Shown one piece after another: positions 1 to 6,042 of a stretch of 6,042 bases of DNA (within the stretch, counting starts at the first letter, position 1; every line of letters starts with the position of its first letter). The stretch lies in the IMG/VR virus record IMGVR_UViG_2698536458_000012, one strand, 5' to 3'. Both the position numbers and the translations under genes were made by a program. The notes below the pieces were generated by a model. That model had not been told where the DNA came from. It ran no database searches and saw only the letters and a list, made by a program, of their open reading frames with translations. The stretch comes from a virus (lineage: Duplodnaviria > Heunggongvirae > Uroviricota > Caudoviricetes).

Positions 1-1
1 G

Positions 2-271
2 GAAGGAGTGTCCGTTAAACTCAGGCTACCTCAGGTTATTCGCTTCTGGGCATGGGCGGATCAACAAATGATAGACGGTAATGCAGATTGTAACGCTCGC
101 GGCGTTACAAAAAGTGCAATAGATCGCATCACTTTTATGTCTGGTTTTGCTGATGCGTTAATTCAGGTTGGATGGCTGGTCGAAAATGACGGAGGGCTTT
201 CTCTACCTAACTTTGAACGTCATAACGGAAAAAGCTCTAAAAAAAACGGGCGGTTACAAACGAGCGAGTAA
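2..271 (+). CDS. 5'-truncated phage replication protein, N-terminal replisome-organizer-like segment (frame 2)
   Basis: Frame is open from the window edge (codons from position 2); the GTG at 8 has no usable RBS, so the gene probably starts upstream of the window. Segment ends ...GWLVENDGGLSLPNFERHNGKSSKK then TAA at 269-271. The protein-like reading continues in frame 1 straight after the A8 run at 239-246 (KKRAVTNERVTKIRELKRKG...), so this looks like the first piece of a frame-broken gene. Family assignment is from memory, not a search. Confidence 0.55.
   Translation, partial: EGVSVKLRLPQVIRFWAWADQQMIDGNADCNARGVTKSAIDRITFMSGFADALIQVGWLVENDGGLSLPNFERHNGKSSKKNGRLQTSE
89..109. repeat. Inverted repeat TGTAACGC-tcgcg-GCGTTACA (8-bp arms)
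   Basis: Perfect 8-bp arms with a 5-nt spacer, read directly from the sequence; shares the GTAACGC/GCGTTAC core with the palindrome at 299-317. Confidence 0.8.
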
Positions 272-298
272 CAAAAATACGCGAACTGAAACGAAAAG

Positions 299-317
299 GT
301 AACGCTGCCAGCGTTAC
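299..317. repeat. Inverted repeat GTAACGCTG-c-CAGCGTTAC (9-bp arms)
   Basis: Perfect 9-bp arms with a 1-nt spacer; another GCGTTAC half-site follows at 334-340, just upstream of the GAGGAA repeat. Confidence 0.8.
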
Positions 318-342
318 ACAAACGGATCAAAAAGCGTTACCA

Positions 343-380
343 GAGGAAGAGGAAGAGGAAGAGGAAGAGGAAGAGGAAGA
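343..380 (+). repeat. (GAGGAA)6 hexanucleotide tandem repeat, encodes Glu12 in frame 1
   Basis: Six perfect GAGGAA units (343-378) plus GA. In frame 1, the only frame open across this region, it encodes EEEEEEEEEEEE between the organizer-like and DnaT-like segments. Its reverse complement explains the poly-Ser tail of the minus-strand ORF 327-839. Confidence 0.95.
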
Positions 381-458
381 TCTAAATACTGATCTCCCCC
401 TCGCCAAAAACGAGCGTCTAAAAAATTCGAGCCGGAGGCTATTGAGCTGCCCGATTGG

Positions 459-728
459 TTGCCGGAAACACTCTGGCATGAGTGGGTCCGGTTCAGACAG
501 GCATTGCGAAAACCGATTCGAACGGAGCAGGGCGCTAACGGGGCGATACGGGAACTGGAAAAATTCCGTCAGCAGGGTTTTACACCTGAGCAGGTGATTC
601 GACACAGCATCGCCAATGAATACCAGGGCCTGTTCGCGCCGAAAGGTGTTCGGCCTGAGACGTTGCTCCGACAGGTTAACACCGTCTCGTTGCCGGACAG
701 TGCGATCCCGCCAGGCTTCAGGGGGTAA
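459..728 (+). CDS. DnaT-like (primosomal protein I C-terminal domain) segment of the phage replication protein (frame 0)
   Basis: The C-terminus ...ELPDW...VNTVSLPDSAIPPGFRG matches the E. coli DnaT C-terminus (...PDW...VNTVSEPDSQIPPGFRG) as I recall it. Frame 0 is open from 393 after a TGA at 390-392, and the only start codon before the conserved PDW motif is the TTG at 459, so the real N-terminus most likely comes from the upstream frames. Stop TAA at 726-728, 6 nt before the DnaC-like start. Confidence 0.7.
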   Translation: MPETLWHEWVRFRQALRKPIRTEQGANGAIRELEKFRQQGFTPEQVIRHSIANEYQGLFAPKGVRPETLLRQVNTVSLPDSAIPPGFRG

Positions 729-734
729 CGGACC

Positions 735-1481
735 ATGAAAAATATTGCGACAGGCGGCGTTCTGGAACGCATCCGCCGACTGACCCCGCCACATGTAACC
801 GCCCCATTCAGAACGGTAGCGGAGTGGCGCGAGTGGCAACTTGCTGAAGGCCAGAAACGTAGCGAGGAGATCAACCGCCTGAATCGCCAGTTGCGGGTGG
901 AAAAAATTCTGAATCGCTCAGGCATCCAGCCGTTGCACCGTAAATGCTCGTTTGCGAATTACCAGGTGCAGAACGACGGCCAGCGATACGCGTTAAGCCA
1001 GGCGAAATCCATCGCCGATGAACTGATGACCGGGTGTACAAATTTTGCGTTCAGCGGAAAACCTGGTACCGGGAAGAATCACTTAGCGGCAGCTATCGGG
1101 AATCGCCTGCTGAAAGACGGTCAGACAGTGATTGTGGTTACCGTGGCTGATGTTATGAGCGCCCTGCACGCCAGCTATGACGACGGGCAGTCAGGCGAAA
1201 AATTTTTGCGGGAGCTGTGCGAAGTGGATCTGCTGGTTCTTGATGAAATTGGCATTCAGCGCGAGACGAAAAACGAGCAGGTGGTGCTGCACCAGATTGT
1301 TGATCGCCGGACAGCGTCGATGCGCAGCGTGGGGATGCTGACAAACCTGAACTATGAGGTGATGAAAACATTGCTCGGCGAGCGGGTGATGGATCGCATG
1401 GTCATGAACGGCGGGCGCTGGGTGAATTTTAACTGGGAGAGCTGGCGTCCGAATGTTAGCCATTCGAGGGTTGTTAAGTAG
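735..1481 (+). CDS. dnaC: DnaC-like replicative helicase loader (AAA+ ATPase), prophage-encoded homolog
   Basis: The 248-aa product aligns along its whole length with E. coli DnaC from memory: MKN... N-terminus, Walker A FSGKPGTGKNHLAAAI, Walker B DLLVLDEIG, and the MLTNLNYEVMKTLLGERVMDRM block (DnaC: MLTNSNMEEMTKLLGERVMDRM). The G-rich run at 721-725 could serve as an RBS. It sits directly after the DnaT-like gene, as in the chromosomal dnaT-dnaC operon. Confidence 0.92.
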   Translation: MKNIATGGVLERIRRLTPPHVTAPFRTVAEWREWQLAEGQKRSEEINRLNRQLRVEKILNRSGIQPLHRKCSFANYQVQNDGQRYALSQAKSIADELMTGCTNFAFSGKPGTGKNHLAAAIGNRLLKDGQTVIVVTVADVMSALHASYDDGQSGEKFLRELCEVDLLVLDEIGIQRETKNEQVVLHQIVDRRTASMRSVGMLTNLNYEVMKTLLGERVMDRMVMNGGRWVNFNWESWRPNVSHSRVVK

Positions 1482-1483
1482 TT

Positions 1484-1489
1484 TCAGGA
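1484..1489 (+). promoter_or_regulatory. Shine-Dalgarno AGGAGG for the CDS starting at 1496
   Basis: AGGAGG lies 6 nt upstream of the ATG at 1496. Confidence 0.6.
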
Positions 1490-1495
1490 GGATTT

Positions 1496-1918
1496 ATGGC
1501 GAAACCTTTTACTCCCGAACAGCGGGAAGAACTGAAGACGCGAATTGTGGAACTCGTGCATCAGGACGGTCGGGTCACGATTCGGCAGTTGTCAGATGAA
1601 ACAGGTATCAGTCGTGCGTCTGTCGGTCGCTTATGCATAGAACTGGTCGCAAGTGGTGATGTATATAATTCTGGCTACGGCTTATTCCCGTCTGAACAGG
1701 CTCGCAAGGACTGGCAAAGCGCCCGCAAAAAACTCTCGAGAGTAAAGGTGAGGAAACCGGTTGTTGTTGATCCGGACCTTATCTGGTCATTACCTGACGG
1801 AGAAATACGCCGCTACGACAGGCGCCTGAATATAATCTGTCGCGAGTGCCGGAAGAGCGAAGCTATGCAGCGTGTACTGGCTTTCTATCAGGGTAATTTT
1901 CAGGAGGCGATACTGTGA
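1496..1918 (+). CDS. Small phage protein with an N-terminal winged-helix/HTH-like region; function unknown
   Basis: 140-aa ORF with a strong RBS. The N-terminus (ELKTRIVELVHQDGRVTIRQLSDETGISRASVGRLCIELVASGDV) has the pattern of DeoR/Lrp/MarR-type HTH regions. Composition matches the flanking replication genes and it is co-oriented with them. Confidence 0.7.
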   Translation: MAKPFTPEQREELKTRIVELVHQDGRVTIRQLSDETGISRASVGRLCIELVASGDVYNSGYGLFPSEQARKDWQSARKKLSRVKVRKPVVVDPDLIWSLPDGEIRRYDRRLNIICRECRKSEAMQRVLAFYQGNFQEAIL

Positions 1919-1963
1919 ATGAAATTAGCTATCAGGCTTCAATTACCGCTGGCATTCGCATCA

Positions 1964-1974
1964 AAGGAGAGGAG
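1964..1974 (+). promoter_or_regulatory. Shine-Dalgarno (AAGGAGAGGAG) for the ATG at 1976
   Basis: Purine-rich AGGAG-containing tract ends 1 nt before the ATG at 1976, so the spacing is tight depending on which GGAG is used. This supports 1976 as the start over the ATG at 1919 that overlaps the upstream stop. Confidence 0.5.
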
Positions 1975-1975
1975 C

Positions 1976-2332
1976 ATGGAAATAAAACCAGAAGATGAGT
2001 TAAGCAATATCGTTTTATTTCCGGTAAAAGAGGATGACCCTCGTAATCAGGTTAATTTTCTTTATGAGCCATCGGAAAGACCATATTGCCATCACGCCTC
2101 TGTACGGGTTGACGAAAAAGAGCGTCAGGTCCGCTGTAAAATTTGCGGTGCAGTTGTGGAGCCATTTGACTGGATGCTCTCTGTGGCGAAAAGAGAAACC
2201 AGACTGGCAGATGATGTAAGGCTATTGCGCCAGGAGGAACAGGAAAGGCGGAGAAATATAGAAAAGCTGATACAGATTGAGCGTAACGCGAAAGCGCGGA
2301 TACGCAGGGCGACAAAATCCAGAACTGAATAA
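1976..2332 (+). CDS. Small phage protein with a putative zinc-ribbon (CHH...CxxC) and a charged C-terminal helix; function unknown (alternative start 1919)
   Basis: The ORF track gives 1919-2332. The in-frame ATG at 1976 has the better RBS, giving 118 aa. Cys/His cluster YCHHASVRVDEKERQVRCKICG, then an Arg/Glu-rich tail (RLLRQEEQERRRNIEKLIQIERNAKARIRR). Stop TAA at 2330-2332. Confidence 0.6.
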   Translation: MEIKPEDELSNIVLFPVKEDDPRNQVNFLYEPSERPYCHHASVRVDEKERQVRCKICGAVVEPFDWMLSVAKRETRLADDVRLLRQEEQERRRNIEKLIQIERNAKARIRRATKSRTE

Positions 2333-2479
2333 TTAAATTTAGCACTGTTAAAAATTTAATCCTTAACCGGAGGGATTTCTGCACCCTCAAATCATCAGGA
2401 GACCACCCGAAAGGGCGGGGAGCAGTCACACATCTGTTTCCGATAGCCCCGTTCTAATGCTACACTCTTTGATATTTTT

Positions 2480-2686
2480 ATGACCCCAATAAACATATTT
2501 ATGACAGTTGCTGATTTCAAACGGCCCAAATTGGAGCTCNNNNNNNNNNNNNNNNNNNNNNNNNNNNNNNNNNNNNNNNNNNNNNNNNNNNNNNNNNNNN
2601 NNNNNNNNNNNNNNNNNNNNNNNNNNNNNNNNNNCGGTGAACTCGATAAAGAGATTCAGGACGAACTGGAGGCCAGGAATGATTGA
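2480..2686 (+). CDS. Small ORF (68 codons if uninterrupted), partly N-masked; possible small regulator upstream of the methyltransferase
   Basis: ATG at 2480; the readable C-terminus GELDKEIQDELEARND is protein-like; TGA at 2684-2686 overlaps an ATG at 2679 that has a GGAGG RBS. The middle is masked (2540-2634) and no RBS is evident, so this is tentative. Confidence 0.25.
   Translation: MTPINIFMTVADFKRPKLELXXXXXXXXXXXXXXXXXXXXXXXXXXXXXXXXGELDKEIQDELEARND
2668..2672 (+). promoter_or_regulatory. Shine-Dalgarno GGAGG for an ATG at 2679 (ORF runs into masked bases)
   Basis: GGAGG lies 6 nt before the ATG at 2679 (MIDKSPSEFSYKD...). That ORF overlaps the stop of the 2480-2686 ORF in an ATGATTGA arrangement, which suggests translational coupling. 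Confidence 0.4.
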
Positions 2687-2862: not shown

Positions 2863-4629
2863 ATGAATGTGCAACATTTTGATTTTTTTACAGATAATGA
2901 GTTTTCTAATCTGGAAAGATATCAAACTTGTAAAGCCATGGCCAAAGGTTATGCGGGCAATTACAAAACCGGGCAGTCAAGGTTGATGCATGCCCGCTCA
3001 TACTGCTTCAGCATCGTAGCTGCATATTGGGATACCCTTGCAAAAAAGCAAAAAAGCAGCATTAAAATGAGGGCAGTACCGCACACTGTTTACATAGAAG
3101 ACATTCCATGTGATGCACGCGAGCTCGCTGAACGAACAGGTGAGCTTATTGCTCAATTTCCGGCGGAGGACGCTGGATATCTGATTGGGTCAATTTATAC
3201 GGTAATGCTGCCATCCGCTTACCGTTCGGAATTGGGGGCTTACTATACCCCCCCACCTTTGGTAGCGCGTCTCTTGGACCTGGCTGAAAAGTCTGGTGTT
3301 GATTTTTCTCATGCATCGGTTATTGATCCTGCGTGTGGTGGCGGTGCATTTTTGGCACCAGTAGCCATTCGAATGTTAAAAAAAGACAAGGGGTCTTCCC
3401 CTGAATGGATGTTGAGGAGAATCAGTCGTCGTTTAAAGGGGATAGAGATCGATCCATTTGCGGCTTGGATGAGTTTGGTATTGCTCGAATCTGTACTAAT
3501 GCCACTATGTGTAAAGGTAAAACGTAGATTGCCTGAAGATACAATTATTGTTGCTGATGCGCTTCAGCAAGATAAATTTTCTGGTTATGATCTTGTGGTA
3601 GGGAATCCGCCTTACGGACGTGTCACTCTCGATATTAAAACGAGAGAAAAATATTCTCGTTCGTTATTTGGTCATGCAAATCTATATGGATTGTTCACCG
3701 ACTTAGCTGTTCGCATGGTTAAAGAGAAAACAGGAGTTATTGCATTTCTTACGCCAACTTCTTTTCTTGGTGGGCAGTATTTCACCGCGCTGCGAACCCT
3801 TTTGACCGAAAAAACTACTCCGTATGCCCTTGATTTCGTCACTGACAGGGATGGGGTCTTTGACGATGTTCTCCAGGAAACAATGTTGACAGCATTCAAG
3901 GCGGGAGAACATAAAGTTCGGGCCCAGGTATCCTCACTTGTCCCTAAGGGGTTGAACAAAGCAAAAATTGAGAAAATAGGTAATGTTGATATAGAAAAAG
4001 GTGGAGCAACGTGGCTTTTGCCACGCGTTAAAGATGATGCCTGTTTTCTTAATGTATTAAAACAGATGTCTACGCGTTTAGCNNNNNNNNNNNNNNNNNN
4101 NNNNNNNNNNNNNNNNNNNNNNNNNNNNNNNNNNNNNNNNNNNNNNNNNNNNNNNNNNNNNNNNNNNNNNNNNNNNNNNNNNNNNNNNNNNNNNNNNNNN
4201 NNNNNNNNNNNNNNNNNNNNNNNNNNNNNNNNNNNNNNNNNNNNNNNNNNNNNNNNNNNNNNNNNNNNNNNNNNNNNNNNNNNNNNNNNNNNNNNNNNNN
4301 NNNNNNNNNNNNNNNNNNNNNNNNNNNNNNNNNNNNNNNNNNNNNNNNNNNNNNNNNNNNNNNNNNNNNNNNNNNNNNNNNNNNNNNNNNNNNNNNNNNN
4401 NNNNNNNNNNNNNNNNNNNNNNNNNNNNNNNNNNNNNNNNNNNNNNNNNNNNNNNNNNNNNNNNNNNNNNNNNNNNNNNNNNNNNNNNNNNNNNNNNNNN
4501 NNNNNNNNNNNNNNNNNNNNNNNNNNNNNNNNNNNNNNNNNNNNNNNNNNNNNNNNNNNNNNNNNNNNNNNNNNNNNNNNNNNNNGCTACTTAATTCGCA
4601 TGTTGTCGATCGGGCGTTCAGGTGTATAA
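2863..4629 (+). CDS. N6-adenine DNA methyltransferase, gamma class (Eco57I/TaqI-like, NPPY); likely the modification subunit of a type II R-M system
   Basis: Motif X GAYYTPPPLVARLLDLA, motif I VIDPACGGGAFL, motif IV DLVVGNPPYG, and a following IAFLTPTSFLGG block, in the gamma-class order. ATG at 2863 is the first start after the mask, but the frame is also open upstream (TTG 2683, GTG 2698) into masked bases, so the true start is uncertain. Bases 4083-4585 are masked; the frame is consistent across the mask and ends at TAA 4627-4629. Confidence 0.8.
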   Translation: MNVQHFDFFTDNEFSNLERYQTCKAMAKGYAGNYKTGQSRLMHARSYCFSIVAAYWDTLAKKQKSSIKMRAVPHTVYIEDIPCDARELAERTGELIAQFPAEDAGYLIGSIYTVMLPSAYRSELGAYYTPPPLVARLLDLAEKSGVDFSHASVIDPACGGGAFLAPVAIRMLKKDKGSSPEWMLRRISRRLKGIEIDPFAAWMSLVLLESVLMPLCVKVKRRLPEDTIIVADALQQDKFSGYDLVVGNPPYGRVTLDIKTREKYSRSLFGHANLYGLFTDLAVRMVKEKTGVIAFLTPTSFLGGQYFTALRTLLTEKTTPYALDFVTDRDGVFDDVLQETMLTAFKAGEHKVRAQVSSLVPKGLNKAKIEKIGNVDIEKGGATWLLPRVKDDACFLNVLKQMSTRLXXXXXXXXXXXXXXXXXXXXXXXXXXXXXXXXXXXXXXXXXXXXXXXXXXXXXXXXXXXXXXXXXXXXXXXXXXXXXXXXXXXXXXXXXXXXXXXXXXXXXXXXXXXXXXXXXXXXXXXXXXXXXXXXXXXXXXXXXXXXXXXXXXXXXXXXXXXXXXXXXXXXXXXXXYLIRMLSIGRSGV

Positions 4630-4776: not shown

Positions 4777-5859
4777 ATGAATCTGCCTGTTGTTCCCCCA
4801 TTGAATGTTATCCGGGAAAGATTACAATTAATTTTCCCTGAAGGGACTGAGAATCGTGGATATTTAATTCGGGAAATAGCTGCAAAAACAATTTTTGTCA
4901 TGTTTTATGCTGGTGCGGTTGAGGGGCTGGGGCGATGGATAAGGCCCAGCCAGGTTGTAAGTATGGGAGATTCGCAGGCTGCTCTTACTGATGATGCGTC
5001 CAGAGAAAGCTGGGTAAAGATGACTTTCTCTAAACAAAAGATAAGGCCTGCTGATGCATGGTATGCGGAAAATACGCGTGAGCCAATACGTGATGAAACT
5101 ATAAAAAATGGCCTAATACCTTGCAATGCAATTGTTGAGCGTAAAGGTATACCCACCACATCCTCTCGTCCTCGTTACAGTTTGAATCGCTCTTTTGCAG
5201 CACTCTTTGATGCCGGGCTTGAAGGAGATTCGCTGCTGAGTGCAATAAGTTCCTGGCAAGAAAATCATTTGAACAAAGCCGCTCTTGCTAGGTTGCGTTT
5301 ATTGAAATCAGGGGCAGTGATTGCTGCTGATGCCGTAGTCGTCACTTTCCCAAATGGAGAGAAGAGAACTTTAGCTCCGGGCCCGTCAAGTACAATAGCT
5401 AAGGCCGTCATCGAAGTTTTTGCTCCTAATTTTCTTAAGAATCCAACTGTGCTCTGGTTGTCTGAATCCGGGAATAAAGTTGTTGCTCAGGATGATGTAT
5501 TGGCAAAAGCATTGGGGCTGAATATTGATGCCTCAAAAGCACTTCCAGATATTATTTTGATTGATTTGGGAGAGGACCGAACGGGTTCGGACATGCTTGT
5601 AGTTTTCACTGAAGTAGTTGCGACAGATGGGCCTATAAACAGGGAACGAAAAGTTACTCTCACTCATTTGGCTATTGACGCTGGGTTCAGCGAGAAAAAT
5701 CTTGCATTCCTTACGGCATTTATGGACAGAAGTGCTCTGCCTTTTAAAAAGGCAATACCAGAATTGGCGTGGGGATCTTATGCATGGTTTGCTTCTGAAC
5801 CGGAGCACTTAATTGATCTTCGGGATGGTTATCCGGTAAAGATCAGCCAGAGAAAATGA
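4777..5859 (+). CDS. Putative type II restriction endonuclease, possibly BsuBI/PstI family; partner of the upstream methyltransferase
   Basis: 360-aa ORF co-oriented with and directly downstream of the methyltransferase, sharing its AT-rich composition. GGAG at 4763-4766 could serve as an RBS. The family label comes from recalled similarity to BsuBI/PstI-annotated proteins, not from a search. A possible acidic cluster (PDIILIDLGEDR...VVFTEVVATDG) is present but no canonical PD-(D/E)xK could be confirmed by eye. Confidence 0.5.
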   Translation: MNLPVVPPLNVIRERLQLIFPEGTENRGYLIREIAAKTIFVMFYAGAVEGLGRWIRPSQVVSMGDSQAALTDDASRESWVKMTFSKQKIRPADAWYAENTREPIRDETIKNGLIPCNAIVERKGIPTTSSRPRYSLNRSFAALFDAGLEGDSLLSAISSWQENHLNKAALARLRLLKSGAVIAADAVVVTFPNGEKRTLAPGPSSTIAKAVIEVFAPNFLKNPTVLWLSESGNKVVAQDDVLAKALGLNIDASKALPDIILIDLGEDRTGSDMLVVFTEVVATDGPINRERKVTLTHLAIDAGFSEKNLAFLTAFMDRSALPFKKAIPELAWGSYAWFASEPEHLIDLRDGYPVKISQRK

Positions 5860-6011
5860 CCAAAGTTTGATATCCGCCACGCCCTGAAGGATGGGGGTTT
5901 TACGGTGCACTGGATAAAAAATCGGTTTCATAGATTTGCCCACCGTGGTATACGCCTGCGATAAAAACTTTATTGTCATCAACGGCAAAAGCAATAATTG
6001 TTCTGTGGCGG

Positions 6012-6042
6012 GGTGATGCTGCCAACTTACTGATTTAGTGTA
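6012..6042 (+). mobile_element. IS1: IS1 left terminal inverted repeat and first bases (element continues past the window end)
   Basis: GGTGATGCTGCCAACTTACTGATTTAGTGTA is identical to the canonical IS1 left end as I recall it; insA would read rightward beyond the window. Confidence 0.85.

Follow-up and report, generated by a model that had tools for sequence, protein, structure and literature searches.

The DNA considered here, a stretch of 6,042 nucleotides from a tailed-virus record (Caudoviricetes; IMG/VR record IMGVR_UViG_2698536458_000012) and called the window throughout, is a decayed prophage remnant in which most cis sites of a phage replication module survive. Near its left end lies the broken gene of a Rac-like prophage replication initiator, inside which the word GTAACGC and its reverse complement GCGTTAC recur as palindromes and as single half-sites, the last of them running into a purine-only repeat of GAGGAA. 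The word is enriched in this gene, is under selection as DNA, covaries between its clusters from lineage to lineage and is associated exclusively with the gene that encodes the N-terminal domain (N-domain) of the initiator. Intact counterparts are found in an E. coli Rac-like prophage (locus L001:2898-3692) and in phage vB_EcoS-666R9 (locus L002:2896-3684), where the copy is annotated 'DNA replication protein O'; these genes have 262-264 codons and are located between ydaT-like and ydaV genes. The features of the window that matter most are the following:

35-731, plus strand: pseudogene of the Rac-like prophage replication initiator, 92-97% identical to the intact genes
78-84, plus strand: degenerate forward half-site GTAATGC, placed by codon alignment
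89-109: cluster 1 palindrome TGTAACGC-tcgcg-GCGTTACA, arms of 8 nt and a spacer of 5 nt
250-257, minus strand: degenerate reverse half-site GCGGTTAC, within the DNA-conserved block AAAAAACGGGCN[C/G]TTACA
264-272: degenerate site GCGAGTAAC
299-317: cluster 2 palindrome GTAACGCTG-c-CAGCGTTAC, arms of 9 nt around one base, in the part that codes for a disordered linker
334-340, minus strand: terminal reverse half-site GCGTTAC, abutting the purine tract
342-380, plus strand: purine-only (GAGGAA)x6.5, a candidate unwinding or loading element

Exact forward words occupy 90-96, 299-305 and 2283-2289, and exact reverse words 102-108, 311-317 and 334-340. The total of six compares with 0.40 expected, five of the six fall within 90-340, and none of 200 dinucleotide-preserving shuffles of the window reached six (maximum 3). 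These counts bear out the earlier note on this DNA, which had described five clustered copies (the palindromes at 89-109 and 299-317 plus the half-site at 334-340), judged such a cluster unexpected by chance and pointed to a GAGGAA repeat directly after the sites, a repeat that is perfect over its 6.5 units. The same note overlooked the degenerate copies at 78-84, 250-257 and 264-272, where relatives have exact sites: the first has the unaltered GTAACGC in phage 666R9 and in the majority of other genera, and the third (R335) is GCGTTAC in Serratia, Rouxiella, Yersinia, Salmonella and Cronobacter. Around 250-257, the genera share the codons AAA AAA CGG .. CTT with little or no variation. The sixth exact copy, at 2283-2289, stands alone within a zinc-ribbon open reading frame (1976-2332), has no partner half-site and is probably there by chance.

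A word conserved as DNA

Homologues of the N-terminal 145 residues of the initiator, 60-87% identical and drawn from Citrobacter, Salmonella, Cronobacter, Enterobacter, Klebsiella, Serratia, Yersinia, Rahnella, Rouxiella, Mixta, Erwinia, Pantoea, Pectobacterium, Samsonia and Winslowiella, were aligned by codon. Among 18 non-redundant homologues from about 15 genera, the frequency of the top codon is 0.92 at motif codons vs 0.54 at other conserved residues (Mann-Whitney p = 1.3e-9). Synonymous sites are saturated elsewhere in the module, other conserved residues using their 2-6 codons freely. At the motif, Asn is AAC in 15/15 and 16/16 cases, Val is GTT in 16/16 at both sites, Leu is TTA in 17/17 with six codons possible, and Pro is CCA in 18/18. 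Nowhere in the module is the DNA more strongly conserved than in the terminal half-site block, CAA AAA GCG TTA CCA GAG GAA GAG, whose third-position identity is 1.00. The cluster 1 palindrome is kept in 20 diverged homologues and the cluster 2 palindrome in all of them, the 5-nt spacers varying freely.

Where the adjoining residues do change, the letters of the word stay. The residue before Asn is C, G or S, always with an NGT codon; the residue before Val is S or G, with NGC codons; and the residue before Leu-Pro is A, R, P, E or T, the third base of NCG/NAG being kept. The word is also read in more than one frame. Samsonia, Klebsiella and phage TL-2011b have GTA ACG CAA AAA GTA ACG C.., which encodes V T Q K V T, and in viral contigs the cluster 2 palindrome is found 31, 10 and 1 times in frames 1, 0 and 2, respectively. 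One word in several frames, with only DNA-preserving changes of residue, therefore places the constraint on the DNA and not on the peptide. The conservation of the palindromes beyond codon constraint, on which the earlier note had made its proposal depend, is thus observed. That note had also allowed for a motif common throughout the genome. It is not: across 22 diverse loci, exact 7-mers have a density of 13.5 per kb in the N-terminal coding module of the initiator vs 0.55 per kb elsewhere, and about half of those outside belong to one extra palindrome just upstream of the start codon.

Could the cluster have arisen by chance, from a repeated peptide of the form xNAxxVT, or through recent recombination at a mosaic junction? 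The E. coli sites do encode the similar peptides CNARGVT and GNAASVT, and the module ends at the junction where C-terminal domains (C-domains) are swapped. This group of explanations is nonetheless scarcely credible. The shuffles speak against chance, and the alternative reading frames, which yield other peptides such as KNVTQKVTQQALQKALP, rule out a peptide repeat. Spacers and flanks have diverged to saturation and the 7-mers are exact, so a recently exchanged block is excluded.

It is very improbable, too, that the inverted repeats serve as hairpins in RNA or single-stranded DNA, acting in mRNA processing, attenuation or as a priming signal. The stems show no independent covariation, one word per genome is used for all the hairpins, and the 12-bp tandem forward copies and orphan reverse copies cannot all pair, although both palindromes are stable in single-strand prediction and persist in the centroid structure. 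The region 80-470 folds no better than its shuffles (z = -1.57), and the reading as a structured RNA was dropped for this reason. An Rfam scan of window positions 1-2540 gave zero matches at E <= 1.

Word classes, the N-domain and the purine tract

More distant members of the family were found by tblastn in named phages. Xanthomonas phages CP2 and SAC, Pseudomonas phage PAN70 and Ralstonia phage YL1 have initiators 36-47% identical, in genomes of 62-64% G+C, and use the same word: their cluster 1 is GTAACGC-N5-GCGTTAC and their cluster 2 is GTAACGx / GCGTTAG / GCGTTACC. Other lineages have other words, as an unbiased 6-mer count showed (copies in the module, then copies in ~2.7 kb outside it):

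epsilon15, phiPSA1, RPZH6 and BUCT711: GTCCGC/GCGGAC, 6-8 copies and 0-2
Ralstonia phage Raharianne: GTAGAC/GTCTAC, 7 copies and 0
Vibrio phage 1.211.A: GTCACA/TGTGAC, 5 copies and 0

A switch of word affects both clusters at once, and the layout is unchanged in these distant relatives. The N-domain is the only constant partner of the sites: C-domains and upstream genes differ, and so do the loaders, which are DnaC-like, lambda-P-like or DnaB. The converse approach, a scan of IMG/VR for the bare pattern GTAACGCNNNNNGCGTTAC (GTAACGC-N5-GCGTTAC), returned at least 80 loci. Among the matches listed, 67 of 80 encode an N-domain homologue, down to 34% identity, and have the palindrome at -32, +136..166 or +325..429 of the initiator gene; the gene is present in all 31 loci with two or three palindromes, and the 13 loci that do not have it contain a single palindrome each, several of them at contig ends.

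These associations bear on the identity of the protein that reads the word. Recognition by a host factor, or by a different phage protein (a YdaS/YdaT-like regulator or DUF977, for instance), is distinctly unlikely, even though several DNA-binding proteins are encoded nearby in the window and in its E. coli relatives. Those neighbours vary from locus to locus (YdaS/YdaT, a cytosine methylase, a Roi-like protein, a metallophosphoesterase and others), the N-domain alone being constant, and the word follows the lineage of the N-domain from Vibrio to Ralstonia hosts, which would be unexpected for a conserved host factor.

The intact initiator (L001:2898-3689) matches PHROG 2509, 'replication initiation protein', with an E value of 4.3e-91 over profile positions 1-264 of 277; this family comprises the Rac-like / TL-2011b / CP2 group. 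From its N-terminus, the protein has a winged-helix-like domain, a linker that is disordered and a C-domain of the YdaU type. A Pfam scan of the intact 264-residue protein at E <= 0.01 gave zero families, Phage_rep_O included, and an NCBIfam scan likewise gave no family, with only a sub-threshold match to DnaT by the last 19 residues. The sole match in a PDB sequence search with the N-domain profile was a spurious one to an alpha-galactosidase (E 0.03). In the AlphaFold model of a 262-residue E. coli homologue (mean pLDDT, the predicted local distance difference test, 69; N-domain blocks 74-93), residues 16-91 form four helices and a beta hairpin. Residues 49-60, encoded by the cluster 1 codons, are a low-confidence loop that accepts a 4-residue deletion and an 11-residue insertion, and residues 98-160, encoded by cluster 2 and the purine tract, are disordered. 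Since loop and linker host the sites, the model suggests that the DNA signals lie in the codons of the least constrained parts of the protein.

The C-domain changes with the downstream partner. YdaU-type C-domains pair with a DnaC-like loader, and DnaT-like C-domains are found next to a lambda-P-like protein at a Cronobacter locus and a DUF4942 protein at an Enterobacter locus; in Raharianne, the gene after the initiator encodes DnaB itself. A tail of the form ..PD..IPPGFRG (window 690-728) ends initiators whose C-domains are otherwise unrelated. It weakly resembles the last 19 residues of DnaT (NF002770, E 0.0086) and might serve the loader or the helicase as a short docking peptide.

The purine tract, unlike the half-sites, does not change between specificity classes. 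Gene positions +370..455 hold a GA-only run (median 21 nt) in 60 non-identical loci, 50 of which have no longer stretch of purines or pyrimidines (median locus ~10 kb). The sequence is AGAGAAGAGAAG.. or AGAGGAAGAGG..; its coding strand is purine throughout (100%) and A-skewed (AT skew 0.4-0.64). Lineages differ in how the tract is translated (EEEEEE, REEKRREE or otherwise), which makes it a DNA-level feature as well. The number of GAGGAA units differs between nearly identical genes (6.5 in the window, 4 in E. coli OkiPb01676 and ~2.5 in phage 666R9), a polymorphism that points to slippage within the tract, and one Shigella/E. coli allele reads PVEEED.

A predicted origin and its relic in the window

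Intact relatives carry two to three 19-bp palindromes and 2-5 extra half-sites across ~450 bp, and no compact four-iteron array. Cluster 1 reads forward, forward, reverse at gene positions +149/+161/+173, and its first copy is the one that has decayed in the window. Cluster 2 starts with weaker reverse-type sites at ~+320 and ~+335 (window 250-257 and 264-272) and continues with 1-3 forward half-sites at a 12-bp (4-codon) period; a reverse site 12 bp on completes the 19-bp palindrome and is followed by the final reverse site, which invariably reads GCGTTACC(A/T)GAG.. and runs into the purine tract. Cluster 2 and the tract lie between the coding parts for the N- and C-domains, at positions shared by more than 80 loci. 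About half of the genera, among them E. coli, Salmonella, Cronobacter, Serratia, Mixta and Pantoea, have a further full palindrome upstream, 13-42 bp before the start codon and beside the ribosome-binding site. The three palindromes are ~190-210 bp apart. In the E. coli Rac-like locus, they lie at 2867-2885, 3058-3076 and 3265-3283, giving spacings of 192 and 207 bp that are repeated in eight viral contigs, and this regularity could reflect looping or wrapping.

Most probably, the half-sites are bound by the winged-helix-like N-domain of the initiator that their own gene encodes, and together with the GA-only tract they would probably form a phage origin of replication inside the initiator gene. 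Such an origin would comprise the GTAACGC-N5-GCGTTAC 19-bp palindrome ~20-40 bp before the start codon, the forward-forward-reverse group from +149 to +179, and 1-3 forward sites followed by two reverse sites from +335 to +410, the last touching the purine tract. Initiator dimers may bind to the palindromes, with further protomers on the half-sites spaced 12 bp apart. The complex would then strain the neighbouring purine tract until it opens, and the C-domain of the initiator would bring in the loader encoded downstream (here YdaV, which is DnaC-like) and the host DnaB. The upstream palindrome, close to the ribosome-binding site, might provide autoregulation as well.

Is control of the gene perhaps all that the sites do? 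They could be operators only, through which the initiator or another regulator governs the replication operon, the true origin lying elsewhere. This is unlikely. Autorepression through inverted repeats is common among plasmid initiators, and the full palindrome next to the Shine-Dalgarno sequence in several genera would fit such a role, but the majority of the sites lie inside the gene, as far as 410 nt into its coding sequence. Klebsiella, TL-2011b, Samsonia, Rouxiella and Pectobacterium have the intragenic clusters without the upstream site, and repression offers no obvious role for the invariant junction with a purine tract present across the family.

Several points weigh against an origin of this kind. 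A search of open-access text found no paper on an origin of this initiator family and no binding or replication experiment for it. Fold matches of the N-domain are weak and generic, and a profile comparison of the N-domain with lambda O by hhalign gave a probability of 0.6%, that is, no relation. The tract has an only moderately low G+C content of 0.38-0.48 (~50% for the GAGGAA form) and is no classical AT-rich unwinding element. One palindrome lies within the region coding for the folded N-domain and one upstream of the gene, neither of which a simple lambda-type origin needs. Finally, the IMG/VR loci, at least 80 in number, were the first returned and are not a random sample. Of the lambdoid-type origin iterons proposed in the earlier note, the analogy of layout and the conservation as DNA have held up, and the origin role itself is a prediction from sequence.

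More tentatively, and with some doubt, the predicted origin may exemplify a widespread and so far undescribed architecture of temperate-phage origins in Proteobacteria, in which a swappable word is combined with a constant GA-only mirror-repeat tract. At least four classes of word (GTAACGC, GTCCGC, GTAGAC and GTCAC) would be written in whichever frame suits the codons of the loop and linker. The (GAGAA)n or (GAGGAA)n tract would be the melting or helicase-loading site, replacing the AT-rich element, and possibly acts through triplex-prone or strand-asymmetric DNA.

The copy in the window has lost part of this layout. Homology to intact initiator genes begins at 33-35, and the end of an IS600 element stands in place of the first ~105 nt of the gene and of the upstream palindrome of the intact relatives. 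The lesions, with the gene that follows, are:

1-35: end of an IS600 (IS3-family) element, with 100% matches beside IS600 transposase genes in many E. coli genomes
238-246, plus strand: A9 run, the first frameshift, 2 bases longer than in the intact genes (A9 vs A7) by alignment
394-400, plus strand: 10-bp deletion between CCCCCT direct repeats, the second frameshift, by alignment
735-1481, plus strand: intact ydaV-type, DnaC-like helicase loader (NCBIfam PRK12377, E 8e-154; DnaC, E 1.7e-91; Pfam IstB_IS21)

Because of the two additional A at 238-246 and the loss of 10 bp near 395-400, the window initiator is read through three frames. Both frameshifts are located in a homopolymer or between short direct repeats and represent either real decay or assembly errors. 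With the gene truncated and frameshifted and its upstream site lost, the window element is a relic in a decaying prophage and not a working origin; it could fire only if a related phage provided the initiator in trans. The placing of the motifs inside a replication gene by the earlier note is therefore right as to homology (35-731), except that the copy here is a truncated pseudogene without the upstream site. The YdaV-type loader is the partner of the initiator C-domain.

Further to the right, 2863-4080 and 4777-5859 encode a PstI-like restriction-modification pair, partly N-masked, which appears to have been inserted into the prophage remnant. Its members are an Eco57I/N6_Mtase-type methyltransferase with an NPPY motif and a restriction endonuclease of the BsuBI/PstI type in which both domains are present (E 9e-45 and 1e-30). 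GTAACGC was considered as the target of this pair and the idea dropped: PstI-like model enzymes cut CTGCAG, which is unrelated. On the minus strand, 5860-6010 then matches a RelE/ParE-family toxin gene, at 99% identity in two E. coli genomes, and the window closes with an IS1 terminal repeat (its last ~34 bases, 6009-6042) that is present at thousands of places. The IS600 end on one side and the IS1 end on the other suggest a Shigella-like, IS-rich host.

If the predicted origin is real, it would provide a sequence-level origin, and a code by which initiators recognise it, for a large and uncharacterised phage initiator family, found in the Rac-like prophages of E. coli and Shigella, TL-2011b, epsilon15 and its relatives, and phages of Xanthomonas, Ralstonia, Pseudomonas and Vibrio. 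The four word classes on one scaffold would be a natural series for the evolution of initiator-origin specificity, and the gene would be a case of overlapping codes, with DNA signals in structurally permissive parts of a gene that encodes their own reader. Uses would include the annotation of origins, the prediction of incompatibility or cross-activation between prophages and superinfecting phages, and the design of phage-derived replicons. The principle will not surprise a specialist; the cross-genus evidence is unusually clean and makes many phage origins directly testable.

Comparison with known replication systems

Resemblance is closest to the lambda origin within gene O. In both, the sites occupy the central stretch of the initiator gene, which separates the N- and C-domains (lambda iterons at +349..433, here +320..410), have dyad symmetry over 18-19 bp and are directly followed on the coding strand by a purine-rich run, which in lambda is AAAAGAAAAAAGAAAAGA. 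As in lambda, the N-domain and the sites here would make up one specificity module, with the C-domain matched to the helicase loader. Additional iterons add residues to O in lambdoid phages (PMC7466680), and the extra half-sites here likewise lengthen the protein. The differences are equally clear. There is no detectable sequence homology to lambda O, as the Phage_rep_O and hhalign results indicate. Lambda, as well as the Shiga toxin (Stx) phages 933W and P27, has four spaced iterons, whereas 12-bp tandem half-sites are mixed with palindromes here, and two further groups of sites, in the N-domain loop and upstream of the gene, are present ~190-210 bp apart. The AT-rich tract of lambda contrasts with a GA-only repeat of ~40-50% G+C, and the lambda P loader with the DnaC-like loader in the window.

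The Rac prophage has been reported to have an active origin, oriJ (PMC3945230). The ydaU-ydaV genes of K-12 Rac share with the window the position in the operon, the YdaV loader and the C-domain (93% nucleotide identity, window 471-740). K-12 ydaU, however, aligns with the window only over 471-740, its N-terminal half being unrelated, and the window-type initiator gave no Pfam hit to the DUF1376-type N-domain of the YdaU family. The K-12 gene has zero GTAACGC sites and instead, at the corresponding place (L110:1253-1360), a linker repeat, (A)TGTTCAAACA, in four direct copies and one inverted copy. These repeats are followed by an A-rich stretch and then by the same CCCCCCCTAAATCCCCCCC block. 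From its sequence, the linker repeat is a plausible candidate for oriJ.

Iteron plasmids of the RepA, RepE and pi types resemble the predicted origin in their repeated half-sites and in a separate inverted repeat at the 5' end of the initiator gene, with possible autoregulation. They differ in that the sites described here lie in coding sequence, show no sequence similarity to those systems and belong to a phage early operon with a dedicated helicase loader. By analogy, then, the element would work like lambda ori/O, outside that family by sequence and in keeping with the already known principle of an origin placed within the gene of its own initiator.

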